Shown piece by piece: positions 6,471 through 27,003 of a DNA stretch of 64,000 nucleotides. Location: positions 8,247-72,246 of the forward strand of contig JAZNFP010000055.1 of NCBI GenBank assembly GCA_045576095.1. The letters are read 5' to 3'. The stretch comes from Eubacteriales bacterium. GTDB lineage: Bacteria; Bacillota; Clostridia; Oscillospirales; CAG-272. The notes below the pieces were generated by a model, which was not told where the DNA came from, searched no databases, and saw nothing but the letters and a program-made list of their open reading frames with translations. The translations under genes were made by a program, and so were the position numbers. The first letter of the stretch is position 1. Each line of letters opens with the position of its first letter.

Positions 6471-6546
6471 TGGAGCGGATTACGGGGCTCGAACCCGCCA
6501 CCTTCGCCTTGGCAAGGCGACGCTCTACCAAATGAGCTAAATCCGC
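6471..6546 (-). tRNA. tRNA-Gly (GCC)
   Basis: Hand-folded cloverleaf. Anticodon loop UUGCCAA, T-loop UUCGAGC, encoded CCA. Confidence 0.9.
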
Positions 6547-6549
6547 ATA

Positions 6550-6625
<76 letters not shown>

Positions 6626-6630
6626 GAAGA

Positions 6631-6707
6631 TGGCGACCCGGATGGGGCTCGAACCCACGACCTCCGCCGTGACAGGGCGGCGCTCTAACCAACTGAGCTA
6701 CCAGGCC
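6631..6707 (-). tRNA. tRNA-Asp (GUC)
   Basis: Hand-folded cloverleaf. Anticodon stem CCGCC/GGCGG with loop CUGUCAC, encoded CCA. Confidence 0.9.
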
Positions 6708-6728
6708 ATATGCTCGGGACGATCCTTT

Positions 6729-6804
6729 TGGTGGGAACAACAGGGCTCGAACCTATGACCCTCTGCTTGTAAGGCAGATGCTCTCCCAACTGAGCTATGC
6801 TCCC
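6729..6804 (-). tRNA. tRNA-Val (UAC)
   Basis: Hand-folded cloverleaf. Anticodon loop CUUACAA, encoded CCA. Confidence 0.9.
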
Positions 6805-13132: not shown

Positions 13133-13208
13133 GCCCCTGTAGCTCAGTTGGCAGAGCATTTGACTTTTAATCAAAGGGTCCGGAGTTCGAATCTCCGCAG
13201 GAGCACCA
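13133..13208 (+). tRNA. tRNA-Lys (UUU), integration target
   Basis: Hand-folded cloverleaf. Anticodon loop CUUUUAA, T-arm CGGAG-UUCGAAU-CUCCG, encoded CCA. One C3-A70 mismatch in the acceptor stem. Confidence 0.88.
13164..13208 (+). repeat. attL: 45-bp direct repeat (anticodon loop to CCA of tRNA-Lys)
   Basis: CTTTTAATCAAAGGGTCCGGAGTTCGAATCTCCGCAGGAGCACCA is identical to 27995-28039. Confidence 0.9.
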
Positions 13209-13341
13209 CGCCGTCAAACGACCGTTTGGCGGCTTTTTATCTGACATTTCGAGAACATTAACCGGGGAACAATCCCCGGCTTTTTTCATGGAAAATCACA
13301 CCCTTTGATTTTTGGGAAAAGGGTGTGCGAAAAAAGAGCAG

Positions 13342-14244
13342 CTATTTGCCGTCCGAGAATCGGTCAAGCGGAGAAAAATTAACAAATTCGGAAACGATCC
13401 GTCGGTTCGCAAGATGAAGATACCTTTTAACCATCTCGAGCGACGTATGACCGAGAATCATCTGAAGAGAATAAATATTACCGCCATTCTCAAGATACCG
13501 AGTTGCAAACGTATGGCGCAAAAGATGAGGGTGCAACCGTTCAATACCGGATGCCGCCTTCAAATCTCGAAAAAGCATCTTAACGCCCGCCTCCTTAAGA
13601 GGCGCAACACCGCCACCGGAAAGCTGCTTAAGAAAGAAAAACGGAGATCCGCAAGAAAGCGGAATCAGATCGGCATAAAGCTGCAGCGCATCCCGAGTCT
13701 GATTTCCAAAAGGTACGGCTCTTTGTTTGTTGCCTTTGCCATCAACGATCACGTAACGCTCGCGAATGTGCAAACGATTGACTCGGATCGTGACGAGCTC
13801 GTTAAGGCGAAGGCCGCCATCGAGATAAAGCGAAAGGATCGCTCGGTTACGCCGATCGAGAAATCCGTCGCCAGGGAAAACGTCAAAGAGCTGACGGATC
13901 TCTTCATCCGTAAGCGTATCAATCACGTCGCGCCGAGCCTTGGGAAGCTTAAAGCGCGAACAAATATCAACCTCAATATAAACGTTGTGGTATAACCAAT
14001 TCAAAAACGCACGAAGCTGCCGAACATAAGTTTGAATCGAAACCGACGAGAGCTCTCTCTCGATCAAATACAGATAATAAGAACGGCAGAGCTCAAAAGA
14101 CAAATCACTTACGTTAAGCTCAGGTGTTGCGAAACCCAAAAAATACCTCAACTGTACTTCGTAATTACGCAAGGTCTTTTGGCTATTACCCTTTATCCGT
14201 TGCTCAATCAAAAACTCTCGAACCGCGTCCTCAAGAGTCATCAT
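13342..14244 (-). CDS. int: tyrosine recombinase / phage-type integrase
   Basis: C-terminal catalytic signature HLLRHTFATRY...LGHTSLEMVKRYLH (H-x-x-R and Tyr). N-terminal SAM-like core-binding domain. Confidence 0.9.
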   Translation of the reverse strand: MMTLEDAVREFLIEQRIKGNSQKTLRNYEVQLRYFLGFATPELNVSDLSFELCRSYYLYLIERELSSVSIQTYVRQLRAFLNWLYHNVYIEVDICSRFKLPKARRDVIDTLTDEEIRQLFDVFPGDGFLDRRNRAILSLYLDGGLRLNELVTIRVNRLHIRERYVIVDGKGNKQRAVPFGNQTRDALQLYADLIPLSCGSPFFFLKQLSGGGVAPLKEAGVKMLFRDLKAASGIERLHPHLLRHTFATRYLENGGNIYSLQMILGHTSLEMVKRYLHLANRRIVSEFVNFSPLDRFSDGK

Positions 14245-15796
14245 CGGCCTCCGTTCCTCGACGTCCAAGCACCGCCTCAAGCTGACGAGTCTTCCGACGC
14301 TTAAGCTCACTGTAAAGCACAGGGCATCGAGGCGCTACAGCCTCGCCGGTACTGCTGTCGATCAATCGACCGTACTGACGAGTATGTGCGTCGTTGTCGT
14401 TAATCTCGCAAAGAGCTGCAGAGAGATCCTCGGAAAGATCTGCAGATTCATAGTCATCCGTAATCAAAGCGGAAAGCCGGGCAACGTTAGAATACATGGA
14501 AATGCTCACCTTCTTTTTATCGACGTTCTGCTGATACGTGCGAAGCACGCCGCCGACGTCTCCGGTGTGATCGTCGATCTTGCATTCTCGGATCCTTTGC
14601 CACCACCATATCAGCTCAGGCTCTTTTGCCTTCCGATCCTTCACAAACTGCAAAGACGTTGACGTTAAATAAGTACAAACAGATTTACGAATAGAAAGAA
14701 GCTTCTCAAGATGCGCAAGATCCGGGAACTCAAGATCGTCCGGTTTCGGCAAACCGTCAACGAGATCCTGCATGCCAGCATACAAACGTCGCTGGGTCTG
14801 AAACTCAAAATTGACAATCGTCGTCACCTCGGGGACAATTCCCTTGATGGCTTCCTCGAGATGAATGTTGTTGTCACTCTTGATATAATATTTCTCGCGA
14901 AGATCTCGGATCCTCCTTTGAAGCACCGGATCCTTGCCATACCGCAGATACCATTCAGAGCGGCCCCAAAGAATGCCGGAGCGGTAGCACCCAAGCTCGT
15001 AAGCACTCTCAAGGCAGAAGCGATCAAACGCCGAAATCAGCCCGTTTTGGCGCCAACGTTCAAAGAAAAATGACTTGTATTTAAGGCAAACAACCTCGTT
15101 TGTCTTATCATAGCAACGAAAAAACACGGTATGAGACTTACGATTTCCAAGCTGCAGCGTCTCTATCTTGAGCTTGTCCGAAAGCTTAAAAAACTTTACC
15201 CCGGAACGGAATTTTGATTTAACGCGCTTTTCAATAGCACAGTCGTGCAGCACTCGAGTCGGATCCGAAATACAGTTGGTATGAAAAGCATAATCAATAC
15301 GGTTTTCCATAACACAAGCAATCTGCAAATTGTTGCGTTCGATAAACTCACGAACAACTTCATACGATTCGCGTATCGCCTTCTTTACCCCCTCGAGGAC
15401 GAGATACCTCGAGCGAAGCTGCACCACCACCCGAGGCGTCTGCACGTTGGGTAGATTCGTGCAGATAAATATATCAAAATCCTCGCCCCGGGCCAAGCAG
15501 ATATCATAATTCGAAAAAGACCTGATCTCAAGGCAAAGCCCAAGATCCTCATAGCGAAGCTCACGGCTCCGATCTGTTTTCTTTTCAGCCTTCAGCTCAC
15601 GCAAACGATTGAGAAAGGACCAAAGTATGATCCATGCTTCCTCATCATCCGCATCGGGCTCCTTGAGATAAACCGAATAATAAAGAGTATCGATGTGATG
15701 CAGCACAGCCTTATCACGAACGTCAAACCATTCAAGACGCTCAAGATCAGACATTTCATTAAAGGCTTTCGTTTGCTTAACACTGATCTTAATCAT
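14231..15796 (-). CDS. Rep_trans-family rolling-circle replication initiator / MOBT-type relaxase
   Basis: LGNRKSHTVFFRCYDKT matches the G-x-R-x-S-x4-R-x-YDK motif of the Rep_trans family (pT181 RepC, filamentous phage Rep, Tn916 Orf20). 521 aa. Confidence 0.7.
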   Translation of the reverse strand: MIKISVKQTKAFNEMSDLERLEWFDVRDKAVLHHIDTLYYSVYLKEPDADDEEAWIILWSFLNRLRELKAEKKTDRSRELRYEDLGLCLEIRSFSNYDICLARGEDFDIFICTNLPNVQTPRVVVQLRSRYLVLEGVKKAIRESYEVVREFIERNNLQIACVMENRIDYAFHTNCISDPTRVLHDCAIEKRVKSKFRSGVKFFKLSDKLKIETLQLGNRKSHTVFFRCYDKTNEVVCLKYKSFFFERWRQNGLISAFDRFCLESAYELGCYRSGILWGRSEWYLRYGKDPVLQRRIRDLREKYYIKSDNNIHLEEAIKGIVPEVTTIVNFEFQTQRRLYAGMQDLVDGLPKPDDLEFPDLAHLEKLLSIRKSVCTYLTSTSLQFVKDRKAKEPELIWWWQRIRECKIDDHTGDVGGVLRTYQQNVDKKKVSISMYSNVARLSALITDDYESADLSEDLSAALCEINDNDAHTRQYGRLIDSSTGEAVAPRCPVLYSELKRRKTRQLEAVLGRRGTEADDDS

Positions 15797-18089
15797 TCGA
15801 GATATCCCTTCTATTGTTGATTTTCAAAAGCTTATCTCCAAAGCGGGAATGCTGGGCCTTGATCTCGTCGGGTGACGCGACAGGGCCCGAATACGTCCGC
15901 GACGTATCATGCTCCCACCAGGATTCGTATTCGTCCTTTTCTTCCTTGGTCAGATCCTCGCCCTCGACGAGCTTGGAATAGATCTTCGGATTGAACTTTG
16001 CCGCACGCTCGGCGAGCACGTCGGCATAGCAGTCGGTACCGTATCTGCCGGCACGGACCTTTTTGTATGCGACCGGGAGCTTAAGCAGCTCAGGCTCTGC
16101 ATCCATATCCTCGCCGTCCTTGAGATGCACGTCCAGCAGCTCAAAGCCGAACAGCTGCTGCTGTCGGCGGATACTCGGGTAAAAGCGGTCCATAAGGCGC
16201 ATGAGCGCGAACGTCGGAAGATCCACGTCGGCGCGGTTGACCGATCGGTCGGCGTAAAAGCCATGCCAAAGCGAGAGAAGAAGATCTCTTAAGAAGCGCT
16301 CGATCAAAAACAGATGATAGGTCGATCTCGGCCCGCTCGAGCCCTTGATGCAAAGAACGTTCGTCAGCTCAAGGACGTCAGCCTGAAGCGAGCTCGGGCG
16401 CTGCTCGTCCCCGATGTACTGCGCGTAAGGCGTATAGCACGCCGTCGAGGAATGCCGCTTGATCTTCAGACGATCGACGATGAGATCGTTCTTGACGTTC
16501 GACGTCGGCGCCGACTCCTTCAGATCCTTGTTGGTGAGGCTATTTCCGTAGTCCTTCCCCATCTCGGTATGACTCCAAATACCGAATTCCCACGCGCCGG
16601 CGGGAGAGGCGGGATCGACCGTCTTGCCAAGGCGGAGAAGATCAAAGTCAGAGACGTGCGCTCTCTCGGCCTCGCCTCGGGGATCGAAGGGCGCCGAACG
16701 GAAGTAATCAGAGGTCCACGCGGGGAACTTCCCCTTGTCAACGTACTTCGCATCGACCCGAAGCGAATAGGACGAAAAAACCGTACACTGCACGCGATAC
16801 ATGTACTGAAGCTCGGCGTAATCGACGATCCGATCGCGGAGATGCGAGACGGTAACGCCATCGGTGAATTTTCTTCTGCCGACGTAGCCGTAGAAAAGGG
16901 CGTCGTCCTCGCGAAGAAGCGAGGTAAAAAGGCTGCGTGTATATGCCTTGCCCTTGAGATCACCCATAAAATACATGATCCCGATCTGCTGATCAAGCAG
17001 GGCCCAGGGATAATCGGGGAACTCGGCGCGGATCTCGAGCATCGACTCCTTCTGTCGGTCGCGGTGCGCGTCCTGGAAGGAAAGAGTCAGGTTGACGTTC
17101 GTTTGCGTTTTGCCGACACCGACCTTGCCGGTAAGTAGAACCAAGAGCGGAAGCCGAGAAACAACGTCGCGAACGGCCTCCTCGAACGTATCAAGCCGCT
17201 TATAAGCAAGATACTGTCGGATCTTAACCGAAAGAACGTACCCGATCACAAGCCAGACCAAAAGCGGCAAAGCGTCGAAAGCTACGGTCAGATCAAGCGC
17301 AAGCTTATAGAGCTGCAGATAAAGGCTCTTGTAATCTGCCGACACCGAAAGATGCAAGAGCAGTGCCACCGCCTCGAGCCCGACCGTCAGAAGATTCGTT
17401 CCGGCAAAAAACAGAAGCGAGAGCCAAACGAGATAAGAGAGCGAGGCACGATACCACAGCTCGCGCACGATCAGCAAGATCGGGGAAAGCCCTCTGCCGA
17501 GCCACCTAAGGAATCGGACCGACCGCGTGCATTTTTCGAAATCGTCATTTTCATCGGTCACAGATCCGCGAATAAGAATCGTCCCGACAAGACAAAGCAG
17601 CAGCACCGGGAGCGCGAGCTGCGAGAGGTACATCGCCAGGATCACGACCTGAACGAAATATGCGAGGAAATGCTCCTTATGAAAGAGAAGCGAGAAGAAT
17701 CTCGACCAAAGGCCCTCGAGCTCCGAGGGGTCGATCGGGAGAAAGGGAACGTACGGAACGTCGGGAACGTCGTTGATGCGGATCGGCAGGCTCCCGGCGT
17801 CAAGATGCATCACGCACAAAAGATATTCCGCCACCGAGAGAAGCAAATCGTAGACCGCACCGCCGAGACGGTAGAAGGACCAGGTGCCGTTGAAGGCGAA
17901 ATACAAGGCGATAAGGACAAATACCGTCGGATAGGCGATCCTTTCAAAGAGGGAGCGGCGGCGCTTTGGAGGCTTTGGCTTCTTGATCTTATAACGCCGA
18001 AGCACCGTTCCGTCGTCAAGCCGGATTCGCTTTGCCGGGTGCAAATGCTTCAAAGGGTCACGACGAGACCGAAGACGGCGGAATAACAT
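15789..18089 (-). CDS. polytopic membrane P-loop NTPase (pI/Zot-like morphogenesis ATPase or TcpA/FtsK-like coupling protein)
   Basis: About six N-terminal TM helices, Walker A LLTGKVGVGKTQ, candidate Walker B YIGDEQ. The start abuts the stop of the 34-aa ORF, and its stop overlaps the Rep start by 8 nt. Confidence 0.65.
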   Translation of the reverse strand: MLFRRLRSRRDPLKHLHPAKRIRLDDGTVLRRYKIKKPKPPKRRRSLFERIAYPTVFVLIALYFAFNGTWSFYRLGGAVYDLLLSVAEYLLCVMHLDAGSLPIRINDVPDVPYVPFLPIDPSELEGLWSRFFSLLFHKEHFLAYFVQVVILAMYLSQLALPVLLLCLVGTILIRGSVTDENDDFEKCTRSVRFLRWLGRGLSPILLIVRELWYRASLSYLVWLSLLFFAGTNLLTVGLEAVALLLHLSVSADYKSLYLQLYKLALDLTVAFDALPLLVWLVIGYVLSVKIRQYLAYKRLDTFEEAVRDVVSRLPLLVLLTGKVGVGKTQTNVNLTLSFQDAHRDRQKESMLEIRAEFPDYPWALLDQQIGIMYFMGDLKGKAYTRSLFTSLLREDDALFYGYVGRRKFTDGVTVSHLRDRIVDYAELQYMYRVQCTVFSSYSLRVDAKYVDKGKFPAWTSDYFRSAPFDPRGEAERAHVSDFDLLRLGKTVDPASPAGAWEFGIWSHTEMGKDYGNSLTNKDLKESAPTSNVKNDLIVDRLKIKRHSSTACYTPYAQYIGDEQRPSSLQADVLELTNVLCIKGSSGPRSTYHLFLIERFLRDLLLSLWHGFYADRSVNRADVDLPTFALMRLMDRFYPSIRRQQQLFGFELLDVHLKDGEDMDAEPELLKLPVAYKKVRAGRYGTDCYADVLAERAAKFNPKIYSKLVEGEDLTKEEKDEYESWWEHDTSRTYSGPVASPDEIKAQHSRFGDKLLKINNRRDISND

Positions 18090-18194
18090 TTAGAGGACCT
18101 CCAAAAACGTTGTCGCGGCGTAGCCGCCAAAGAAGAGAGCGACGAGAAGCAGAAGAAACCGAAGGACGTAATATCCGAGCCTTAGCTTCTTCAT
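18090..18194 (-). CDS. 34-aa single-TM peptide (pVI-like position)
   Basis: MKKLRLGYYVLRFLLLLVALFFGGYAATTFLEVL. Its ATG overlaps the stop of the 628-aa gene (ATGA), and its stop abuts the ATPase ATG. Confidence 0.5.
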   Translation of the reverse strand: MKKLRLGYYVLRFLLLLVALFFGGYAATTFLEVL

Positions 18195-20077
18195 CCGCCG
18201 CCTCCGCGTCTGCCGAAGGCGTCTCGGATCATTGCAATCAGCTTCAGCACACAGATCACGATCAACACCAGAACCGTCGCTGCACCGATCAGAGCGGCGA
18301 TCTGAAGAAGCTCCTTCAGGGCTGCAAGAAGCTTCATCCACCAGGGATCATCGTCATCCTTAATCGGAGAAACCACTTCGGGCGACTGCGGCGCCTTAAT
18401 AAAGGTCATTGTCTCCATTACGACAGGAACGGTGTGAAGCTTCTCATTTTCACCGAACGCAATCGAGATGATCTTAAAATCGTCTACGATTGCATTCTCG
18501 CAATAATACGTGGTTTCGCTGAAACCCTCCCAATCCGGAAAAAGCAGTGCTTGATCATGCTCGCGCCAATACTCGGCGGAATGAACGAAATATTCCGTCT
18601 TGAGGTAATGAAAAACGACCAGGGTCTGATCCTCCAATGAGGAGACACATGAATTCATAAGAGAGCGAAAGGTTCCGAGTCCGTCATCATCCAACGCGTA
18701 CTGTGTTTTCAAATCCTCGTCGCTTTTCGTCCCGTCGCCTACAGACGCAATTTGAATAGCCGAAACGCTCACGGAATCGTCCGAAACCTTATGCCCCGTG
18801 AGCTTATAAAGCCATTCTACAAAGCCCGATATGGAATCTTCAAAGCTTTTGGTCTCAAAAAGATCGTTCGGAGTTTTCGTATAAGTATCTAAGGGGGTAC
18901 ATGAAGATGCACGAAGATAGTCACTCATGGCGAAAAGCTTATCGCCTGCTACAGAAGAAATAGACTCCTTCAGCTTGAGATAACGCTCAAGCACGTCGTC
19001 GTCCGACAGCTCGGGAAGCCCCTTATCATCGGTCTTAATCTGGTCAACCATGAACAAGAACGTTTCTTTCGCATCAGGGTGGGATGCCCACTTGCCGAAT
19101 GGCATTTTAGTGGGGCTTCCCAAAGCGCTAACGTTATAAGCAAACGGTGCTTCTGCCCCTTTTTTCCAAAGATTGAAAAAGCTTCCCTCAACGGTCAGAT
19201 CGTCACGGTCACATTCGGTCACGAGCATCGGTACGCCCTCGAGCAAGGAATACTGATACTTGATTTGATCAATCCGCTTCCAATCCTCGAGATACTCCGT
19301 CGGGATCAGAAACATCGCGGTATTGATCTGATCGTAATAACCAAGATTGGAGGTAGAATATCTGCTCGCCGTAAGATGAACGTCGAGATAAAGCTCGTCG
19401 GACAGGCTCCAGCCTTCCAGCTCGCCTTCATTGGAAAAGGTCAATTGAATATCCGAGTGCAAACTGCCGCCGGCAATGCTGCTTTGTTGGCCGGTGTACG
19501 CCACCGTCTTGGTCCTCAATGAGGACGAGGGATCGCGGTACGTAATCTCAAAGAGCCGCACCGTCAGCTCGTAGCTATCGCCGACGCGGAAGGACTCATA
19601 CTCGCTCTTGGTAAGATTGACACGGTACTTCACAAGCGTTTCGGTCGTTGAGACCTGCTTTGCGCTCTTGTAATAGGTTCTGCCTCCCGCCTCAAGCGTG
19701 AAGGCGGCCGAAAGGGCCGACTCGGTTCCGCCGGGAACGTAAACGTAAAAAAACACGTTGCATCCGTTTGTGCTCGTCTCGACGGTCGACGTGATCACCG
19801 AGGCGTCGGCGGTTCCGAGCGCCGCATTCTTCGGATAACTCTCAAGCAGCGTTGCCGCCGCTGCTTCCTCTCCCGCCTTGATCTCGGCTGCTGTTTTCCC
19901 CTCGGCATAGATCTCGGGGTCCACAAGATCTGCATAGACCGTCGTTTTGGAAAACGAGACGTGATCCCGGGGCGCCCCCGATTCCTCTGCACCCGCTGCC
20001 GTGCAGGGAAGAAAAGACAAAAAAAGCTGAAGCGCGAGCAGACATGCAACGGCGACAGCTTTCAGCTTTGTTTTCAT
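18191..20077 (-). CDS. large exported protein with C-terminal membrane anchor (pIII-like architecture)
   Basis: Signal peptide MKTKLKAVAVACLLALQLFLSFLPCTAAGA. C-terminal TM IAALIGAATVLVLIVICVL followed by a basic/Gly tail. RBS GGAGGAAAGGA. Confidence 0.65.
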   Translation of the reverse strand: MKTKLKAVAVACLLALQLFLSFLPCTAAGAEESGAPRDHVSFSKTTVYADLVDPEIYAEGKTAAEIKAGEEAAAATLLESYPKNAALGTADASVITSTVETSTNGCNVFFYVYVPGGTESALSAAFTLEAGGRTYYKSAKQVSTTETLVKYRVNLTKSEYESFRVGDSYELTVRLFEITYRDPSSSLRTKTVAYTGQQSSIAGGSLHSDIQLTFSNEGELEGWSLSDELYLDVHLTASRYSTSNLGYYDQINTAMFLIPTEYLEDWKRIDQIKYQYSLLEGVPMLVTECDRDDLTVEGSFFNLWKKGAEAPFAYNVSALGSPTKMPFGKWASHPDAKETFLFMVDQIKTDDKGLPELSDDDVLERYLKLKESISSVAGDKLFAMSDYLRASSCTPLDTYTKTPNDLFETKSFEDSISGFVEWLYKLTGHKVSDDSVSVSAIQIASVGDGTKSDEDLKTQYALDDDGLGTFRSLMNSCVSSLEDQTLVVFHYLKTEYFVHSAEYWREHDQALLFPDWEGFSETTYYCENAIVDDFKIISIAFGENEKLHTVPVVMETMTFIKAPQSPEVVSPIKDDDDPWWMKLLAALKELLQIAALIGAATVLVLIVICVLKLIAMIRDAFGRRGGGG

Positions 20078-20133
20078 TGTTTTGACTTCCTTTCCTCCCC
20101 CCCGACCGTAGCCGGGAGGGAGCATTTTTTGAA

Positions 20134-20646
20134 TTACTTGTAGAACGAAACGTCGATGGATGCACCCGAAATCACCGGAGTGATCTTGTCTGCAAAGAGT
20201 CCGAAGTCGTGACCTTCCTTAACCACGATCACAACATCATAGGTACCCGGCTCCGTGATCGCGATCGGGTCCTTGTCCGAACGCTTCACCTCTCCGTCTA
20301 CGACGAGACCGAGATAATAGGTGTTCGCCGAGCCGTGCTTGGCGCCGGTCAGCTTGACCGTTCCGATCGGAAGATACACAGAGGCATAAACGAGCTCAAC
20401 GTCCGTCTTGGCCTCGCCCTTGAGCTTGACGGCTCCGTTTTCGTCTACCGTCACCTCAAGCCCGCTCTCCTTGTCGGTTTGCGTCTCAAGCACTACGTCC
20501 TCGAGCGTGATCAGGTTCTTGTCGTTGCGCTCGCGCTTCACAAGCCCCGAGCCGAGCGAGGTTCCAATTCCAAGGAGCAGCACTCCCGCCACGACCGCAC
20601 ACACGATCGCGAGCGTCTTCTTGCTTTTTCCGCGTCTTCTGCTCAT
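20134..20646 (-). CDS. N-terminally anchored exported protein
   Basis: Basic N-terminus plus TM (TLAIVCAVVAGVLLLGIG), then a beta-rich ectodomain. Confidence 0.6.
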   Translation of the reverse strand: MSRRRGKSKKTLAIVCAVVAGVLLLGIGTSLGSGLVKRERNDKNLITLEDVVLETQTDKESGLEVTVDENGAVKLKGEAKTDVELVYASVYLPIGTVKLTGAKHGSANTYYLGLVVDGEVKRSDKDPIAITEPGTYDVVIVVKEGHDFGLFADKITPVISGASIDVSFYK

Positions 20647-20661
20647 GCTTTACTCCTCCTC

Positions 20662-21249
20662 TCAATAAAGATACTTGTTCCCCGTGAACTGAATCGCGCG
20701 GGGCGCATAAATCGTCTGCTCAACGTCAGGGCCCTTGTCCTGATAATAGATCACGAGGCAAACCGCATCGGCAGGGATCGGAACCATGACGGAATCGCTC
20801 GTGCTCTGACGAAGCTCGTTATAGCCGATCGCGTAGGATACCTCTTCCCCGAGCTCCGGCATCTCGCTCAGAAATGCAAACGCCATGTAACGATCGCCGT
20901 TCGCATCCTTGCTGGCGGAAAGAGTAACCTTGGTGAAAACACAGTCGGTCAGGTCAATGAAGGCAACCTTGTTTTCCTCGTCGACAATGTACTTGTGCGC
21001 GTCACCGTCGTTATCGGGATCGGCGTCGCGGAGAAAATAGTTCGGGATCACGCCCTCGGCTGCCTTCAGCTCCTCAACCGGATAGTCGTAGGCGGCGAAC
21101 AGAGGGTTCGTCAGACTCGGCTTCTGATCCTGATCCGCACCGCCCGGATTGAACACCGCCGGGTTGATTGACGCCAGCGTTCCGATCAAGAGCAGCAGCG
21201 ACACGATCGAGAGCGCAAGCGCAAGTGTCGTTTTCGTTTTGCTTTTCAT
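20662..21249 (-). CDS. N-terminally anchored exported protein
   Basis: MKSKTKTTLALALSIVSLLLLIGTLA signal/anchor, acidic ectodomain. Confidence 0.6.
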   Translation of the reverse strand: MKSKTKTTLALALSIVSLLLLIGTLASINPAVFNPGGADQDQKPSLTNPLFAAYDYPVEELKAAEGVIPNYFLRDADPDNDGDAHKYIVDEENKVAFIDLTDCVFTKVTLSASKDANGDRYMAFAFLSEMPELGEEVSYAIGYNELRQSTSDSVMVPIPADAVCLVIYYQDKGPDVEQTIYAPRAIQFTGNKYLY

Positions 21250-21318
21250 TTTTTGCTCCTTGTTGATACTCCTATTGTTTTATTTTCCTCACTGCCCTGC
21301 AGTGCCGTGAGCTTTTTA

Positions 21319-22356
21319 TCAAAAGATGATGCTCGTTTGGTTAAGGCTCAGAGACGTCGCAGCCTCAACGATCATCGACGAGTCAAAGCAGAGATAGAAA
21401 TTGTGAACCTGTGTTTCAAATGCTGTCTTCACAGTGACCTCGATGCAGATCGCACGTCCGTTTCCGAACGCCTTAACCGCACGGTTGAACGCATTGACGG
21501 TTTCAAGATAATTCTCCGCATTTTCCTCAGACTCCGGAATCAACACACTCATGTTCGAACGGTTGAAGACGTCCGCAAACGTGACGTCGTCAATAGAAAT
21601 CGGATCGGTTGGCGTGTGGCCCACGTCGATGTAATCCCGAACAACGTTCGCAAATTCATCCGTCGGGTAAAAGCGAACCGTCGCCGTTGCATCGGCTCCG
21701 ATTGTGTAATGTTCGCTTGTAAGAACCGTGAAATGGATTTTCTCTTCATAAACAGACGACATGTGCGTGCTAAACACGATCGGATTCACGACGAAATCCG
21801 TCCCCGAATAAACCAAGCTATCCGACTGAAAGATCGTAGTCACCTTGGACGGCCGAATGTAAGTTTCCTCAATCTTTTGGCGGAAATCGACCGTGCAGCT
21901 CGCCTTCGCATTCGAATTGCTGTTCGCAAAAACGGTTATCACGATCTGCTCCCCAAACGATGCGAGCAGCTCAACGCTGCAGCTCGTTCCGTTCGGAGTC
22001 AGACGGATGAATTCACCGACGTCGGTATGCGCTTTGGCAAAGCTCGAGGAAGAATCCTTCCAGACTGCCGTCCAGGTCAGTCCTGCCGCCTCGGCTCCCG
22101 AGGGCGTAACGGTTGCAAGAAGTGTCACCACTCCGTCCCGCGGCTCTTCCGCCATCAGGCTCATCAACGTGCTCTCGTGGATCCCACCGATCGAAAGCTC
22201 CCCGGCGCCGGGCGACTCGTTTCCGCTGCCGTTCCATCTCAAGACGACACGCGCCGTTCCCACCGAAAAAATCGCGGCGCACAGAAGAACCGATGCGATC
22301 AGGATCGCCCACTTCTTCCTCGAGCTCTGTTCATTGATTCTGTTCATTTTTTTCAC
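21319..22356 (-). CDS. N-terminally anchored exported protein (Ig-like repeat suspected)
   Basis: Anchor WAILIASVLLCAAIFSV. The TVTPSGAEAAGLTWTAVW segment resembles bacterial Ig-like (Big_2) modules. Confidence 0.6.
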   Translation of the reverse strand: MKKMNRINEQSSRKKWAILIASVLLCAAIFSVGTARVVLRWNGSGNESPGAGELSIGGIHESTLMSLMAEEPRDGVVTLLATVTPSGAEAAGLTWTAVWKDSSSSFAKAHTDVGEFIRLTPNGTSCSVELLASFGEQIVITVFANSNSNAKASCTVDFRQKIEETYIRPSKVTTIFQSDSLVYSGTDFVVNPIVFSTHMSSVYEEKIHFTVLTSEHYTIGADATATVRFYPTDEFANVVRDYIDVGHTPTDPISIDDVTFADVFNRSNMSVLIPESEENAENYLETVNAFNRAVKAFGNGRAICIEVTVKTAFETQVHNFYLCFDSSMIVEAATSLSLNQTSIIF

Positions 22357-22359
22357 TCC

Positions 22360-22545
22360 TTAAAAATAAACGTGATCGGGATTCAATACAATCCCGGATA
22401 CCGGCACGATGCCCGGGTCCGTCACCTCAGGCGTTGTCTGTGAGGATCCGCCCGGATCGCTCCTTGGCAGCTCGATCGACGAGAACGTGCCAAGCAAGAG
22501 CAGGATGGCGAAAATCACCGCCAAAATCGCTATACCTTTTTTCAT
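22360..22545 (-). CDS. 61-aa single-TM protein (candidate coat-like/small membrane protein)
   Basis: MKKGIAILAVIFAILLLLGTF followed by a Pro/Thr-rich tail. 3-nt gap to the next gene. Confidence 0.5.
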   Translation of the reverse strand: MKKGIAILAVIFAILLLLGTFSSIELPRSDPGGSSQTTPEVTDPGIVPVSGIVLNPDHVYF

Positions 22546-22648
22546 TTTCTCACCATTTCTTTTCCGAGAAAGCCTCAAACGGTCCCCCGGGCTTTTTGAT
22601 CTGACCTAAACTCGGAAGGAAAGTAGAACACCCGCGCCGATGAAACGC

Positions 22649-22930
22649 TTAGCTCGGCAAAGGGGCTTTTTCTTTTTTGCGCTCCTCGGGATCGAGGGCC
22701 AGTGTTGCGCCGACATAAAGCCAGAGCGCAAAGACATCATCATGAAAATCCTCAAAAGAGGTGTATCCGAGTAAAGACGGCAAACCGATGAAGGTGCGGC
22801 CGACGGCATCAAAATCGTGCAGCCGCATCACAAGACGCTTCACACGAAGCTTAAGCTTTTCATCCTCGGATAACTTTTGTATCAGCTCAAGCTCACGCTC
22901 CCACGCGGGGGCTTTTCTTTTTGCCTTCAT
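22649..22930 (-). CDS. hypothetical protein (93 aa)
   Basis: Coding-like composition. C-terminal hydrophobic helix FALWLYVGATLAL followed by the basic tail EERKKEK. Confidence 0.45.
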   Translation of the reverse strand: MKAKRKAPAWERELELIQKLSEDEKLKLRVKRLVMRLHDFDAVGRTFIGLPSLLGYTSFEDFHDDVFALWLYVGATLALDPEERKKEKAPLPS

Positions 22931-22954
22931 GATCCGCCTCCTCAGGGTGGAGGC

Positions 22955-23269
22955 TTAATCGTTGTCTGAGAATAGCCCTAAGAATTTACCATCCTTCCAA
23001 TTACCGAATTTCCGTCGCATATGGGACAAATAGGAATCAACAGCTACACGATCCGATACACGTTTACCATCAACCTTACCATACTCTTCGCGAATCGACC
23101 GCAATGTACTTTGACTTATTCTTTTCGGTTTGCGAAAATTGGTATCGTAAAATTTACCGCCCACATATGAAGGCCCCAAATACCGAGGCTTGGAACTCGA
23201 GCTTTTACGCGACTTCTTCTGCATCGCCGTTTTGTACCCGAACTTAAACATCTGCGAAAGTTTAGACAT
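22955..23269 (-). CDS. hypothetical highly basic protein (104 aa)
   Basis: Lys/Arg/Ser-rich N-terminal half, consistent with nucleic-acid binding. No family recognised. Confidence 0.45.
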   Translation of the reverse strand: MSKLSQMFKFGYKTAMQKKSRKSSSSKPRYLGPSYVGGKFYDTNFRKPKRISQSTLRSIREEYGKVDGKRVSDRVAVDSYLSHMRRKFGNWKDGKFLGLFSDND

Positions 23270-23296
23270 TTTATTATCTCCTTTTGAAAATTAAAT

Positions 23297-23656
23297 TCAT
23301 CCCAGCACCTCACACAAGGGGCATTGCTCACACATCTCGTCCAGCTCGTCCTGGTCCCGGCACTCTAAAGAATGCCGGCAGAGATCTTCACAGATCGCGC
23401 ACTTCACCTTCTCTGTAAAATCAAAGGTGATCGAGCTGATCGACGAAGAATGGTTGCACCGAAAAATCTTCTGACGAACAAATTTATACGGTTCGCGAAC
23501 ATGATAAAAGCGATCCTCACCTCTCAAACCACGTCCGTCATAGGTTACCAAAACGGTACCCCCTTTTTCATGTGGAGAAACAAATTCAATACGATCAATA
23601 TTGATCAAAGCGACGTCGCCACCATCAAAATTCGTCAGCTCAATAAAGTTACTCAT
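23297..23656 (-). CDS. hypothetical protein with C-terminal Cys cluster
   Basis: CAICEDLC...CRDQ...CEQCPLC suggests a Zn-binding tail. Overlaps its upstream neighbour by 8 nt. Confidence 0.5.
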   Translation of the reverse strand: MSNFIELTNFDGGDVALINIDRIEFVSPHEKGGTVLVTYDGRGLRGEDRFYHVREPYKFVRQKIFRCNHSSSISSITFDFTEKVKCAICEDLCRHSLECRDQDELDEMCEQCPLCEVLG

Positions 23657-24026
23657 CGGGAGCTAAGTACCTCCTATGATAACGTTCTTCGCATACTGCG
23701 CAGATACCGTCAAGCTCTTCCGGCGTTAAACGTCCATCCGCAACCGCCTTTGTATTCGCGCAAGATATGCACTGCTTGGCGCGCTCGGCGCTCTCATCGC
23801 TCACAGGAATCGGAACAAAAACTACCCCGCCGCCAACGTGAGACGCGACAACCGTCGAGGTAAAAGAATCTGCGATGATCGTACAAAGAGCAAGAATATC
23901 GACCTGCAGCTGCCCGGGAACATAATTCAATACAGACGCCAAGCGTTGCAGATCTATACCATCAAAACGACGTTCCAAGGCTCCGGCAAGCCGTTTTGCA
24001 TTATCAAACACACTTAAGTCAATCAT
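23649..24026 (-). CDS. hypothetical protein with CxxC pairs
   Basis: CISC...CAVC motif. Overlaps its upstream neighbour (ATGA). Confidence 0.5.
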   Translation of the reverse strand: MIDLSVFDNAKRLAGALERRFDGIDLQRLASVLNYVPGQLQVDILALCTIIADSFTSTVVASHVGGGVVFVPIPVSDESAERAKQCISCANTKAVADGRLTPEELDGICAVCEERYHRRYLAPDE

Positions 24027-24952
24027 GCGCTTGCCTCCTTCTGTTCGGCATATACGATCACAGCCGGGCGCTTCTTCTGAAGATAATCGATGATCTCGCT
24101 CATCGCATTCCCGCCGGGGTTCCAGTGGGAACGGTAACCGGTTTGCTCAAGCAAATGCCAATGACGGTCGATGCCCTCCTTGTTATACGTTGCCTTCGGG
24201 ACCTCAACCTCATCTACGATCACCGAATCACCGTTGCCGAAATCGTAACGGTAATAGGTCATACCAAGCTGCGGCACCCGGAGCCATACGCCCCAGGCGC
24301 GGTAATTTTCAAGCCATGCCTTGCGCCTCTTCTCGTTCGGAAGCACCTCGGTCGTAGCTCGTCCGCCCTTCGTCTCGGGTTCACACTCGATCACGATCGG
24401 CTGACGCTGCTCGGGAGCTGCGGGAGCTGCTTGCTCCTTTGGCTCGGGCTTTTCCTTTTTCGGCTCAAGCGATGCCTTATATGCCCGGATCTCCTTGACT
24501 GTCATTTTTGGGGTAATATCACGCCGATGCTCAAGGTCCATCGGCAGGATCTCAACGAGCTGCGAATGAGAATAGCCCTCGTATTCGGGCTTGAGCACCG
24601 GCAGAGCCGATTCCTTATCGTTGATGCAAAATGCCTCATACGCTGAAATCGCCGCATAAAGCGCGCTTTTCTTCAGCTTAAATTCTTGCTCAGCCCAGGC
24701 GAAGAGCTCGCGCGAACAGCCGTCTTCGAGATACACGTAATACATGTATGCAGACTTTGCAGTGAAAAGGATCTTACCGATCAGAAGATAATTCAGCTTT
24801 ACCGCCTGAACGGCAGTACGCAAAGACTTTACGATCATCGCGGATCGGGTGTAAATATCTGCCCGAAGACTTGCCTCGGGCATTTTCCAGACGTCTGGAA
24901 AATCGTAATCCTTTGCGTATTCTTCCTTCAGGCGCTCACGATAGGTTGCCAT
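24023..24952 (-). CDS. hypothetical phage/plasmid-type protein (DUF3102-like N-terminal domain suspected)
   Basis: 309 aa. Helical N-domain, Pro/Glu/Lys linker, C-terminal globular domain. The family call is from memory only. Confidence 0.5.
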   Translation of the reverse strand: MATYRERLKEEYAKDYDFPDVWKMPEASLRADIYTRSAMIVKSLRTAVQAVKLNYLLIGKILFTAKSAYMYYVYLEDGCSRELFAWAEQEFKLKKSALYAAISAYEAFCINDKESALPVLKPEYEGYSHSQLVEILPMDLEHRRDITPKMTVKEIRAYKASLEPKKEKPEPKEQAAPAAPEQRQPIVIECEPETKGGRATTEVLPNEKRRKAWLENYRAWGVWLRVPQLGMTYYRYDFGNGDSVIVDEVEVPKATYNKEGIDRHWHLLEQTGYRSHWNPGGNAMSEIIDYLQKKRPAVIVYAEQKEASA

Positions 24953-24956
24953 TATC

Positions 24957-25457
24957 TCATGCCTCCGACGCCTGGAACATCAAATCAATGACGTTGGAAG
25001 GATTGACGTGGATCTCAGCAATCTCGTCCGTGCCGTAGTCATTCACAAAGGTCATGACACTGATACCGTGCAGGAAAAAATCGCGTACAAAATTTGCCTT
25101 AAAGTCCGCGAGGCTGCATCCAAGCAGCTTCTCAACGTCGCCGACACGAATACTGTAAGCGTTGTCATAACGGCCAACGTGTACGCCGTTTTTATAACCC
25201 GGATGATTCGGGTCGTTTGCAAATTTGTTGTCCTGCAGATCTCGAATCGGCACCCACATGCGAGATCGTCCTCGAAAGCCGCCGCCGGAGATCACCTGTT
25301 CAAACTCGCTCTCCTGACTCGGTGCCGAATCATACGTCGGCTTCTCAACATTGAGATTCTGAACGTACAGGATCAGTCGCTCATACGGAACCTTCTCGTC
25401 GGTCCCGCGCTTCGTGTACTTCCCTGCTGCTACCTCAAACTTTACTAATACTTCCAT
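24957..25457 (-). CDS. hypothetical protein, first gene of the element's long operon
   Basis: 166 aa with coding-like composition. Divergent from the XRE regulator across an AT-rich 290-bp region. Confidence 0.5.
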   Translation of the reverse strand: MEVLVKFEVAAGKYTKRGTDEKVPYERLILYVQNLNVEKPTYDSAPSQESEFEQVISGGGFRGRSRMWVPIRDLQDNKFANDPNHPGYKNGVHVGRYDNAYSIRVGDVEKLLGCSLADFKANFVRDFFLHGISVMTFVNDYGTDEIAEIHVNPSNVIDLMFQASEA

Positions 25458-25777
25458 GAATAGATCCTCCTGCGTTTATCGGCGCCCCGAATTTTATCTC
25501 GAAATCGGAATTTCCATTTTCACTTGCTCAAACTTCGGCACAGGTGGCGCATTGGCAACCCGAACCTTCTCAAGCAAAGCTCGACACTTACGCCCAATCG
25601 TTCCGGATGAAGAACAGTCTTTTAACATTTGAGCCTCACATAAGTTTCTTATTCGGAAACATTATAGCAATAAAAAAGTACACTGTCAAGATATTTGATC
25701 AAAAAAATTCCATTTAGGAAACTTGAATTGAAATTAAATAGCGTAAAATGTATAATTTTTTTCAAGGAGGTGATAGC

Positions 25778-26158
25778 TTGAAAAACTTAAAGATTGCACG
25801 AAAAGCCATGCAATTGACGCAAGAAGAGCTTGGTGAAAAAATAAACATCAGAAAAAGCGCTATATCAAAATACGAAAACGGCAAAGCAGAACCAAGCCAA
25901 ACAATTCTAATTCAACTATCACAAGTATTAAATGTGTCAGTGGATTATTTGCTCGGTCTCGAACCTTCAAGCACGCAAAACGAATTTGCTCTTTTGCCAA
26001 TCGAAAGAGCTCTAATTGAAAACTTCCGATCGAGCTCAACCGAAATAAAAAAAGCAACGCTAAGAATACTCAATGTAAAAGAAACAAGCAAAAACAAAAA
26101 AACGCTTGGCGAAGATATTGCCGAAGCATTTCAAAAGCAATCGGTACATCAAAATTAA
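25778..26158 (+). CDS. XRE-family HTH regulator (cI-like position)
   Basis: LTQEELGEKINIRKSAISKYENGKAEPSQTILIQLSQVLNVSVDYLLG. TTG start 7 nt after AAGGAGG. Confidence 0.85.
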   Translation: MKNLKIARKAMQLTQEELGEKINIRKSAISKYENGKAEPSQTILIQLSQVLNVSVDYLLGLEPSSTQNEFALLPIERALIENFRSSSTEIKKATLRILNVKETSKNKKTLGEDIAEAFQKQSVHQN

Positions 26159-26206
26159 CATTCTGCACCGAATATTCATCTATATCGTTAAATAAGGAGA
26201 ATCATC

Positions 26207-26953
26207 ATGGCAAAAACATGTGCGATCTGCGGCAAGGGTTCAGGTATCTATCCACTTTGCATTTCTTGCTTCAAGCTTAGAGATGCCGGTGAAATAGAAA
26301 AATGCGAAAAGTGCGGAGCCTGGCACTATACTAACGAATCTTGCCAATGCAAAACACCAGAAAAAGATTCGTTCAAAACCGCAGAAAATAAACGCCATGA
26401 AGAGCAAGAACCCGATGACTATGAACATTCTAAAAACGAATGCATCATATGTCAAGAACCGAGCGAAAATCACTATTTTTGCAAATCATGTTACTACAAA
26501 TACAAAAATAAATCCCTACTAATCAGAATAACAAAATGCAAAAATGTAGAATTATTAGACGACTCTTATGAAGGAGCATACAAATGCAAGGACGGACACA
26601 TCGTAAAAAGTAAATCCGAGCGGGATATTGACAACTACTTTTTCGATCACGATATCGCTCATGCATACGAAAAACCGTTACACATTGATGAAGAAACACT
26701 ACACCCCGATTTTTATCTCCCAAAATTAAACATCTACTTAGAACATTGGGGTTATGGAAAATCGAACAAAGAATATCAAGAAATGAAAAATTACAAAATT
26801 CCTCTTTACAAAAAAGCAGGAATAACTCTAATCTGCACCTACGAATCAAGCGACGCAAAGGATATAGAAAGCGCACTAGATAAAAAATTAAGCACTTACA
26901 AAAAAGGACAAATCAACTTTTTAGAAAAAGAAGATATTTTCCCAGCGAAATAA
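26207..26953 (+). CDS. triple Zn-ribbon protein with C-terminal PD-(D/E)xK (Vsr/restriction-endonuclease-like) domain
   Basis: CAIC...CISC, CEKC...CQC and CIIC...CKSC motifs. These are followed by SKSERDIDNYF...YEKPL...HPDFYLPKLNIYLEHWGY, an E...PD...E-x-W pattern of REase-like nucleases. GC is far below the genome average. Confidence 0.6.
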   Translation: MAKTCAICGKGSGIYPLCISCFKLRDAGEIEKCEKCGAWHYTNESCQCKTPEKDSFKTAENKRHEEQEPDDYEHSKNECIICQEPSENHYFCKSCYYKYKNKSLLIRITKCKNVELLDDSYEGAYKCKDGHIVKSKSERDIDNYFFDHDIAHAYEKPLHIDEETLHPDFYLPKLNIYLEHWGYGKSNKEYQEMKNYKIPLYKKAGITLICTYESSDAKDIESALDKKLSTYKKGQINFLEKEDIFPAK

Positions 26954-26965
26954 ATGAATAAAAAT

Positions 26966-27003
26966 AAACGAAGCAGATCCGCTTTTGCGGAGCTGCTTCG
27001 TTC
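26966..27003 (+). terminator. terminator after the nuclease gene
   Basis: Hairpin CGAAGCAG-ATCCGCTTTTGCGGAG-CTGCTTCG followed by TTCG. Confidence 0.5.

Follow-up and report, generated by a model that had tools for sequence, protein, structure and literature searches.

The locus

The 64 000 nt stretch of DNA analysed here (the window; contig JAZNFP010000055.1 of assembly GCA_045576095.1, from a bacterium of the Eubacteriales) contains a gene for a 766-residue polytopic membrane P-loop ATPase and, directly downstream of it, a gene for a 521-residue putative replication initiator (Rep). The original prediction, made from the letters of the DNA, held that these are either a pI/Zot-like morphogenesis module or a coupling protein with a MOBT relaxase, and that the nature of the element hinges on the two together. 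Translation verified both open reading frames (ORFs), the 8 nt overlap between the stop of the first and the start of the second, the motifs GKVGVGKT and YIGDEQ in the ATPase and the motif GNRKSHTVFFRCYDKT in the Rep.

The two genes belong to a 14.8 kb element (13209–28039) integrated into a tRNA-Lys gene by a tyrosine integrase (Table 1). The element is flanked by a direct repeat of the 3' end of the tRNA gene, with 45 of 45 nt identical in the two copies, and has a GC content of 50% between the repeats versus 59% outside; the features of a tRNA-integrated element with a tyrosine integrase (an adjoining tRNA, a duplicated 3' end and a deviating GC content) are all present. A host terminator hairpin (28038–28072) follows directly after attR, and an Rfam scan of the element found nothing besides the tRNA. 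The longest ORF of the integrase overlaps the 3' end of the Rep gene by 80 nt, so its true start probably lies further downstream. The element contains a single tight operon of 15 genes, with spacings of −8 to +103 nt and a GGAGG-like ribosome-binding site before most of them. Within it the ATPase gene is translationally coupled to structural-looking genes upstream and to the Rep gene downstream.

Contigs from five low-depth gut and rumen metagenomes, compared with the element, contained neither an att junction nor a circular form. In two of the gut runs (X1 and X4) contigs join position 15317, inside the Rep gene, to position 26467, inside the gene for a 248-residue protein, with 19 unrelated nt between them; this junction implies a related element with another gene order, or one that lacks the structural and ATPase module.

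The ATPase and its family

The ATPase had been described as having about six transmembrane (TM) helices ahead of its Walker A motif. The count is fair without being exact: hydropathy peaks lie at about residues 51–69, 75–93, 134–173, 211–229, 233–251 and 267–285, the full-length AlphaFold2 model is helical over residues 47–312 (with a predicted local distance difference test score, pLDDT, of 65–88 there), and 88 family members have four to six hydrophobic peaks ahead of Walker A, the median position of which is residue 291. In the window protein Walker A occupies residues 321–328 (nt 17106–17129) and YIGDEQ residues 558–563 (nt 16401–16418), with Asp561 of YIGDEQR as the candidate Walker B aspartate. 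Across 60 diverse members Lys327, Arg444, Arg486, Glu509, Lys512, Asn516, Asn531 and Arg564 are invariant or nearly so. The DE-type Walker B of the original prediction holds for the aspartate, which is kept in 58 of the 60, and not for the following glutamate (Glu562), which is a glutamate in just 31. Since the latter position is poorly conserved, Glu509 would be the better candidate for the catalytic base. The motifs that characterize the family are R486-L-G, TE509xGKxxGN (TEMGKDYGN in the window), N531xxND and DxQR564. Some members have a degenerate Walker A, and their catalysis may be altered. One such member, at 15496–17637 of the related locus L098, reads GPTGSSKT at Walker A and DMQR in place of DEQR.

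Sequence searches found 25 close homologues (the same 25 were recovered with the profile of alignment A3), and an exhaustive profile search returned 1053 representative clusters, formed at 50% identity, at E ≤ 0.001 and 535 at E ≤ 1e-30; the gene is thus real and not a chance ORF. Nearly all of the best 150 clusters are 680–840 residues long and align over nearly their whole length. The window protein has no match in Pfam (E ≤ 0.1), PHROGs or NCBIfam. The 60 diverse relatives show only scattered P-loop matches in Pfam and no annotated PHROG, and searches of PDB sequences with three profiles of the family returned nothing. A set of 72 556 plasmids contained no homologue, and we found no description of this ATPase family in the literature. 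The single significant match among 50 697 phage records is MT835493.1 ('Bacteriophage sp.'), an unannotated 57 kb human faecal contig that is probably chromosomal DNA carrying an integrated element rather than a phage genome. Its host-like genes encode an impB/UmuC-type polymerase, a PAPS-reductase-domain protein, a DUF4007 protein and a class-V aminotransferase.

Predicted fold of the ATPase domain

The full-length AlphaFold2 model was poor (pLDDT 67) and a Foldseek search with it was uninformative; it was replaced by a model of residues 295–766 based on a deeper alignment (73 sequences), with a pLDDT of 94.1 and a predicted template-modelling score (pTM) of 0.89. With the domain model, no PDB entry was matched below E = 0.06, and FtsK and Zot structures were absent from the best 50 matches. 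The weak top matches were AAA+ proteins, HerA and the STIV2 packaging ATPase B204; SIR2–HerA defence complexes, AAA+ membrane extractases and ABC chains were also among the non-significant ones. An ABC ATPase or AAA+ protease, which had been named as an outcome that would overturn the prediction, is rejected as an identity, as AAA+ and ABC chains appear only at E ≥ 0.06.

Against the viral models of BFVD the top match was A0A894JLK1 (269 residues, unnamed; E = 1.9e-6, probability 1.0, TM-score 0.46). Further high-probability matches were A0A345MYA4 (unnamed; probability 0.94) and 'Zonular occludens toxin [Inoviridae sp. ctDDr4]' (probability 0.90, TM-score 0.51, E = 0.13), so that a Zot-like protein does stand among the best viral matches, if weakly. 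The models suggest that the domain is an ASCE-type P-loop fold that has diverged strongly, with Zot-like proteins, on weak matches, as the structures closest to it; they do not place it within the Zot family.

The replication initiator

The 521-residue protein is, to judge from its sequence, a divergent and remote Rep_trans homologue and a rolling-circle initiator, so the Rep_trans assignment of the original prediction was right at the level of remote homology. Two motifs were verified by translation: ENRIDYAFHTN at residues 164–174 and the GNRKSHTVFFRCYDKT motif at residues 217–232 (nt 15101–15148), in which Tyr229 (nt 15110–15112) of FFRCYDK is the candidate catalytic tyrosine. Pfam Rep_trans (PF02486) matches residues 166–237 with E = 0.012 and 15.6 bits, below the gathering cut-off of 29.6 bits, and PHROGs gives phrog_20614 'replication initiation protein' at 3.8e-6. 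At least 193 homologues occur in Clostridia metagenomes, so this gene too is real and not a chance ORF; none of them has precomputed Pfam domains. In an alignment of 29 relatives ENRIDYAFHTN and GNRKSxxxFFRxYxK are invariant at Arg166, Asp168, His172, Gly217, Ser221, Arg227, Tyr229 and Lys231. Ten of these 29 match PF02486 (E ≤ 0.1, best 1e-5), and hhalign of the family profile against the PF02486-annotated Rep of Cellulophaga phage phi12:2 gave a probability of 90.3% (E = 1.4e-6) with both motifs aligned. The invariant residues correspond to the RIDxAxH-type and xxRxYxK catalytic-tyrosine motifs of the Rep_trans initiators (pT181 RepC/RepD, single-stranded DNA phage Reps and MobT); the window protein differs from these in its subthreshold Pfam score, its C-terminal extension of about 280 residues, the lack of a MobT signature and the presence of its relatives on non-mobilizable episomes. 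No NCBIfam model matched at E ≤ 0.1, including the MobT model NF041493, and Pfam showed no helix–turn–helix (HTH) domain. Identification as a MobT (MOBT) relaxase is rejected: there is no MobT match, no N-terminal HTH and no type IV secretion system (T4SS) gene in the element.

The only annotated relatives are ORFs on two Clostridioides difficile episomes of 6.5–6.8 kb (NZ_CP037847, which is pCd1_4, and NZ_ON887052), both typed as non-mobilizable. The ORF of pCd1_4, the one of the two that was examined, has 33% identity to the window Rep over about 90% of its length. All genes of pCd1_4 (6830 bp) lie on one strand. One encodes an 84-residue protein in which a signal peptide is followed by a mature N-terminus reading AEGD, a TM helix and a basic tail; it matches Inovirus Coat protein B at 4.8e-4 and Phage_coatGP8 at 2.7e-3. 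Others encode a 421-residue pIII-like protein, which has a signal peptide and a TM helix at its C-terminus, and an 89-residue pVI-like TM protein. There is no P-loop ATPase. The coat-protein match, the pIII-like and pVI-like genes and the Rep homologue together make pCd1_4 resemble the replicative form of an inovirus that uses this Rep family, and at least this one small C. difficile 'plasmid' is therefore probably such a replicative form.

The candidate origin

A search for an origin within 27240–27780, as had been suggested, yielded a candidate hairpin at 27382–27400. The surrounding non-coding DNA is strongly structured: 27015–27245 contains an imperfect palindrome with 67 nt arms (z = −7.0 for folding as single-stranded DNA, ssDNA), and 27340–27740 is a 400 nt region of 63% GC, in an element otherwise of 43–50% GC, with several long hairpins (ssDNA folding z = −8.95), among which that at 27382–27400 is the sole one that could be linked to a function. 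A 39 nt part of the non-coding region matches the sequence just upstream of the Rep gene in two related loci (L098 and L099). The sequences ahead of the Rep gene in four other lineages have, when aligned, a GC-stem hairpin in common, GGGGCG-N4-TGTA(A/G)(C/T)A-CGCCCC, followed by (T/A)ACATAA in four of the five lineages; the hairpin of L102 carries one compensatory change, A..T for G..C, at the stem base. pCd1_4 has the same hairpin as the window. All seven sequences with a Rep of this family carry a single copy of the pattern GGCR-N4-5-TGTARYACGCC, on the strand coding for Rep and, in L098–L102, 130–180 nt upstream of it; the remainder of the 3.05 Mb of loci contains none. As the pattern was derived from the very sequences that it marks, what carries information is that other sequences lack it and that its position is fixed. 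A GC-stem hairpin also serves as the origin of pT181. These sequence relations make 27382–27400 the candidate origin of this Rep family; together, the Rep and the hairpin define a divergent Rep_trans subfamily and its candidate origin.

Constant and exchangeable partners in related loci

We fetched 79 genome loci from 79 species in a pattern-limited scan, added three further loci to give 82, and clustered the neighbouring ORFs by blastp. The hosts of the 79 are gut and rumen Clostridia, Christensenellales, 'Coproplasma', 'Onthoplasma', Acholeplasmatales and Anaeroplasmatales, with one cultured isolate, Pumilibacter intestinalis CLA-AA-M10. The context of the ATPase gene in these relatives is the strongest evidence for the interpretation given below. 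The ATPase, which was the query gene, is present in 80 of the 82 loci, and in 57 it is directly preceded by a protein of about 630 residues that has a signal peptide, is anchored by a C-terminal TM helix and falls into one blastp cluster. This protein is itself preceded by N-terminally anchored proteins of about 195 and 365 residues, and in the window and at least eight relatives a TM ORF of 32–62 residues lies between it and the ATPase.

The other partners vary. A Rep of about 334 residues of the REP_ORF2-G2P family (PF23343, the Rep domain of filamentous phages and microviruses) is found in 44 loci, a Rep_OBD-like/HUH protein with an SF3 helicase in 12, Rep_1 in L004 and a Rep_trans-like Rep in the window, L098 and L102; all of the types identified, which cover most of the loci, are rolling-circle or HUH families. 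The genes for integration vary as well: 31 loci have an IS30-like DDE transposase (HTH_38 and rve), 12 loci and the window have a tyrosine integrase, and L100, an element with this Rep family, has a serine recombinase. An IS30-like transposase gene is also carried by the Spiroplasma plectrovirus SpV1-R8A2B.

L098 and L102, which were reached from relatives of the Rep, are 13–15 kb elements with an integrase and a repressor. In L098 the order is Rep, a protein of about 100 residues, a basic 87-residue protein, a 178-residue anchored protein and proteins of 620, 508 and 713 residues; L102 has a similar set ending in a 712-residue protein, and both contain type I proteins of 156–508 residues with a basic tail. 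The 713- and 712-residue proteins belong to the ATPase family (hhalign probability 100%, E = 1e-84 and 1e-88). The gene order of L098 follows that of pII…pIII…pI. Members of the ATPase family and Rep_trans-like Reps are thus found together in at least three lineages, although not in one order. The ATPase is the hallmark gene and the Rep is exchangeable. The conserved pair is the ATPase and the ~630-residue anchored protein, not the ATPase and the Rep, and the notion that the latter pair decides the nature of the element did not survive.

Comparison with known systems

In M13 the order III–VI–I places a large signal/anchor protein, a small TM protein and a membrane ATPase in succession, and the window order of 644, 34, 766 and 521 residues is alike. 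By position the 34-residue protein would be an analogue of pVI, and by position and topology the 644-residue ORF product an analogue of pIII/CoaA. Propionibacterium phage B5 (Paulinoviridae) has Orf6 (485 residues), Orf7 (90 residues), Orf8 (Zot, 1.5e-5) and Orf9 (Rep_1), with the rolling-circle Rep after the ATPase as in the window. B5 and pCd1_4 also share with the window element a monoderm host and the lack of a secretin; they differ in being 5.8–6.8 kb with a small pVIII-type coat protein, whereas the element is 14.8 kb and has none that is recognizable. In addition, B5 has a true Zot domain and pCd1_4 no P-loop ATPase.

More broadly, the Tubulavirales with pI/Zot (PF05707) resemble the element in having a membrane P-loop ATPase after a large signal/C-terminal-TM protein and a tiny TM protein, a rolling-circle Rep, and a tyrosine integrase or IS30-like transposase. 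Their pI/Zot proteins are 308–424 residues long with one or two TM segments; the window ATPase, with 766 residues and about five or six TM segments, is more than twice as long, and its ATPase domain of about 470 residues has large insertions, invariant motifs of its own and no conserved glutamate after Walker B. The original prediction objected that pI has the opposite topology, with an N-terminal ATPase. This holds for classical Inoviridae and not for plectroviruses: the Plectroviridae morphogenesis proteins (SpV1 ORF2, SVGII3 ORF2 and SVTS2 p01) have N-terminal TM helices followed by Walker A and B, as in the window ATPase, and the criterion of Roux et al. (2019) for pI, namely Walker A, Walker B and one or two TM segments, accepts these at either terminus (PMC6813254). 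The window protein has both Walker motifs and an N-terminal membrane part, with about five or six TM segments against one or two in that criterion. The same study places pI in the FtsK–HerA superfamily (PMC6813254). SpV1 further parallels the elements of this family in its 715-residue protein, which combines a signal peptide with a TM helix at the C-terminus, and in its IS30-family transposase.

The nearest parallel in concept is Dehalococcoides IME1 (Chloroflexota), a 21–28 kb element first read as mobilizable, which encodes a pI-like ATPase along with numerous small proteins that have a TM segment or a signal peptide; such elements have been proposed to be non-lytic filamentous or budding viruses with double-stranded DNA (10.64898/2026.09.15.751708). 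Its ATPase is pI-like by sequence, unlike that of the window, and no relation to the window family has been shown.

Interpretation

The reading that we favour, at slightly better than even confidence, is that the ATPase is the morphogenesis and export motor of a non-lytic, membrane-assembled, inovirus- or plectrovirus-like lineage and a functional counterpart of pI/Zot, with the 521-residue protein as its replication initiator. Of the two options in the original prediction, the pI/Zot-like module is the better supported, through synteny, membrane features and the weak fold match, although family membership is not detectable. On the proposed mechanism, the Rep would nick the GC-stem hairpin at 27382–27400 on the excised circle and so give single-stranded copies. 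The ATPase would consist of a polytopic membrane domain of about 290 residues fused to a cytoplasmic P-loop domain of about 470 residues, and hydrolysis of ATP on the inner side of the membrane would push the DNA through a channel that the enlarged membrane domain provides. The exiting DNA would acquire membrane-inserted virion proteins, namely the 628-residue signal/anchor protein (the probable form of the 644-residue ORF product), the 34-residue TM protein and those anchored at their N-termini. Monoderm hosts lack pXI and pIV partners, and the membrane domain, enlarged as it is, may also stand in for these. The gene structure, the att sites, the size of the family and its conserved residues, the synteny, the exchange of Rep and integrase types, the homology of the Rep and the association of the hairpin motif with this Rep rest on observation; the scheme further presumes ATPase activity, a cytoplasmic orientation of the P-loop domain, an export function, an ssDNA stage and the particle shape.

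Several observations weigh against this interpretation. The fold matches are weak (TM-scores ≤ 0.51, root-mean-square deviation ∼10 Å) and the best is to an unnamed protein. No match to Zot (PF05707) was found for the window protein or among the families listed for the 60 diverse relatives (E ≤ 1), while the profile recovered the control proteins M13 pI (3e-53), Pf1 (1e-74) and B5 Orf8 (1.5e-5). Alignments by hhalign to M13 pI, to a four-phage Zot alignment and to SpV1 ORF2 and plectrovirus morphogenesis proteins (three) covered the P-loop only, with probabilities of 6–44%; the four-phage alignment gave 21.6% over 21 columns. The profile of the ~630-residue family found nothing in SpV1 ORF1. 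To these are added the variable glutamate after Asp561 and the degenerate Walker A of some members. The position of the coat protein is held by N-terminally anchored proteins of 170–345 residues, unlike in known inoviruses; no small pVIII-like coat protein (signal peptide, TM helix and basic tail) was found in the window, which has only the 34- and 61-residue proteins with N-terminal TM helices, and none emerged from a crude screen of the 79 genome loci, the output of which was mostly noise from AT-rich genomes. The filamentous-phage genomes that we fetched are 4.5–8.3 kb, compared with 14.8 kb here. A pattern-limited scan of IMG/VR gave only one related locus, no terminal overlaps indicative of circular contigs were seen among the fetched loci, and there is no evidence of particles, episomes or ssDNA, the contigs from the five gut and rumen runs being uninformative on this point and no virome run having been found; the rolling-circle Rep and the strongly structured non-coding DNA are only indirect signs of a packaged ssDNA circle. 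Our confidence is moderate because of the missing Zot sequence link, the lack of a small coat protein, the large anchored proteins at its position, the size of the element and the absence of particle or ssDNA evidence.

The large anchored proteins could also be read as envelope proteins or spikes of a pleomorphic or enveloped (plasmavirus- or pleolipovirus-like) budding virus or vesicle-borne element, in which the basic ~100-residue protein would condense the DNA and the ATPase would load the buds. We think this unlikely, if worth keeping in view. It would explain the type I and type II membrane proteins of 170–650 residues where a small helical coat protein is expected and the very basic soluble proteins (104 residues in the window, 87 in L098); the element size of 13–15 kb is near that of Acholeplasma phage L2 (12 kb, with an integrase), and many hosts are wall-less or wall-reduced (Acholeplasmatales, Anaeroplasmatales, 'Coproplasma' and 'Onthoplasma'). 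The conserved core of pleolipoviruses runs spike, membrane protein(s) and NTPase. According to a 2026 preprint, archaeal budding viruses also have pI-like ATPases and small TM proteins (10.64898/2026.09.15.751708). Yet hhalign found no similarity to ORF13 or ORF1 of L2 (Plasmaviridae; probabilities of 0.3 and 0.1%), and tblastn against the 50 697 phage records gave no match to L2. The Rep types identified are all rolling-circle or HUH families, the G2P-type Reps and IS30-like transposases point to Tubulavirales, and the Rep family is shared with an episome that encodes an inovirus coat protein; moreover, the window host and most others are walled Clostridia, from which budding would be hard to picture.

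An integrative mobilizable or conjugative element, in which the ATPase would be a TcpA/FtsK-like coupling protein or TraB-like translocase and the 521-residue protein a MOBT-type relaxase acting at oriT, seems to us improbable. T4 coupling proteins and TraB do have N-terminal TM helices followed by a P-loop domain, Rep_trans enzymes act as relaxases in Tn916/ICESt3-type elements, and actinomycete integrative and conjugative elements (AICEs) such as pSAM2 combine an integrase, a rolling-circle Rep, a large membrane ATPase and membrane proteins. One of the 60 family members matches FtsK_SpoIIIE (PF01580; E = 5.9e-4), and some relatives carry a PcfJ-like gene. The window ATPase and the other 59 lack FtsK_SpoIIIE, however, and the 25 families listed for the 60 include no TraG or type IV coupling protein; FtsK is also missing from the best 50 PDB matches of a model with a pLDDT of 94. 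The window ATPase resembles the FtsK/HerA-superfamily pumps (TcpA, VirD4-type proteins and Streptomyces TraB) in its N-terminal membrane segments and C-terminal P-loop domain and differs from them in having no FtsK_SpoIIIE match, T4SS partners or plasmid homologues. No gene of the element matches VirB4, VirB6, a cell-wall hydrolase or any other T4SS family, the Rep has neither a MobT match nor an N-terminal HTH, and its relatives in the plasmid set are on plasmids typed as non-mobilizable. The 'relaxase' would furthermore have to be replaced by G2P-type or HUH and SF3 Reps in most relatives, and by Rep_1 in one. The coupling-protein and relaxase half of the original prediction fails in each membership feature tested and is not supported. 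Least probable of all is that the ATPase is cargo with a role in host interaction (superinfection exclusion, a defence ATPase or a transporter) that travels with rolling-circle elements. The lack of any annotated family match, the SIR2–HerA complexes and AAA+ membrane extractases among the weak PDB matches and the degenerate Walker motifs of some members would fit such a role; the behaviour of the gene is that of a hallmark instead, since it is the most conserved (80 of 82 loci, as the query gene) while Rep, integrase and regulators vary, and it is translationally coupled both to structural-looking genes and to Rep.

Returning to the inovirus- or plectrovirus-like reading, the type of element is already known, namely an integrated rolling-circle element with a membrane morphogenesis ATPase. 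The ATPase is the new part: its length is double that usual for such proteins, its membrane domain is polytopic, it has invariant motifs of its own, and no model in Pfam, PHROGs or NCBIfam covers it. It is possible, and we propose it tentatively, that it marks an unrecognized lineage (family level or deeper) of non-lytic membrane-assembled viruses, widespread in gut and rumen Clostridia and Mollicutes-like Bacillota, in which pI/Zot has been replaced by, or has diverged beyond recognition into, a channel–ATPase fusion. Detection of filamentous phages, and of other chronic and non-lytic ones, relies almost wholly on a single conserved marker, the pI/Zot ATPase. If the ATPase is a counterpart of pI that the profiles do not see, then these elements would have escaped Pfam, PHROGs and pI-based inovirus searches, and many chronic viruses of gut Clostridia (Christensenellales, Oscillospirales and relatives) would be missing from virome catalogues, now and in future marker-based surveys. 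The channel–motor fusion would then be a new solution to the export of a DNA filament by a monoderm cell without a secretin and would make the question directly testable; the cultured isolate P. intestinalis CLA-AA-M10, which has a member of the family, offers an experimental entry point.

Other genes and features

Table 1. Features of the integrated element, with positions in the window.
Feature	Position	Strand	Description
tRNA-Lys(UUU)	13133–13208	+	ARAGORN; Rfam tRNA 70.7 bits; 3' 45 nt (13164–13208) form attL
Tyrosine integrase	13342–14310	−	Pfam Phage_integrase 1.5e-33; phrog_1 integrase 5e-51; adjoins tRNA-Lys
521-residue Rep	14231–15796	−	Predicted divergent Rep_trans-type rolling-circle initiator; start overlaps ATPase stop by 8 nt
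766-residue ATPase	15789–18089	−	Walker A and candidate Walker B; polytopic N-terminal part
ATPase residues 296–766	15789–17204	−	P-loop NTPase domain with large insertions
ATPase residues 1–295	17205–18089	−	Basic N-terminus (20 Lys/Arg in first 50 residues), then helical polytopic membrane domain with about 5–6 hydrophobic helices
34-residue single-TM protein (MKKLRLGYYVLRFLLLLVALFFGGYAATTFLEVL)	18090–18194	−	Abuts ATPase start; overlaps end of 644-residue gene by 4 nt
644-residue ORF	18191–20125	−	N-terminal signal peptide, C-terminal TM helix, short basic tail
Four N-terminally anchored or secreted proteins	20134–22545	−	170 residues (20134–20646), 195 residues (20662–21249), 345 residues (21319–22356), 61 residues (22360–22545)
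Upstream half of operon	22649–25457	−	Small soluble proteins of 93, 104 (very basic), 119 and 125 residues, then 309 residues, then 166-residue first gene
XRE/RstR-like repressor, 136 residues	25748–26158	+	NCBIfam RstR family 9.3e-18, below the cut-off of that model
248-residue Zn-ribbon protein	26207–26953	+	Divergent from operon, paired with repressor
Non-coding structured region	27015–27740	−	Candidate origin and packaging region; inverted repeats I1, I2, I7 and I8
Candidate double-strand origin (dso; nick-site hairpin I8)	27382–27400	−	GGCGGGTCTGTAACACGCC in GGGGGGCG/CGCCCCC stem, then TACATAA
attR	27974–28039	+	Partial copy of tRNA-Lys 3' end; exact 45 nt at 27995–28039

The product of the 644-residue ORF probably starts at Met17 (nt 20077) and has 628 residues. 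It has no Pfam match, and the profile of the ~630-residue family gave no match to PDB sequences. The 34-residue gene is also called at the equivalent site in L001 and L002, and TM ORFs of 32–40 residues beginning 'MKK..' lie immediately upstream of the ATPase in L054, L062, L066, L068, L070 and L085. Of the anchored proteins, that of 170 residues matches phrog_35108 (E = 3.6e-4); relatives have N-terminally anchored proteins of about 365 and 195 residues (clusters 4 and 5) at matching positions, a likeness to the window genes that is one of position.

The 309-residue protein matches phrog_15077 and may correspond to the DUF3102 protein of like size in relatives. In L001–L003 and L100/L101 the DUF3102 gene is adjacent to a PcfJ-like gene (PF14284), early in the operon and upstream of Rep in L100/L101 and beyond the regulatory genes in L001–L003; the window element has no PcfJ. 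Very basic non-membrane proteins of about 87–104 residues are encoded in the operon of the window (22955–23269, minus strand) and in L098 (10883–11146). Such proteins might serve to coat or condense the DNA; for an inovirus this would be out of the ordinary.

The 248-residue protein, with multiple CxxC motifs, has a weak match to a Holliday-junction-resolvase-like PHROG (8e-4). Its cluster (cluster 8) occurs in 13 loci, and 12 of the 13 members are on the strand opposite to that of the ATPase. The gene lies beside the XRE repressor in the window and L002/L003; a regulator, a nuclease and an excision factor are candidate roles. The final stretch of about 1.1 kb ahead of attR is non-coding. Upstream of the element, at 6471–6804 on the minus strand of the window, is a cluster of four tRNA genes (Gly, Phe, Asp and Val), which is ordinary host content.

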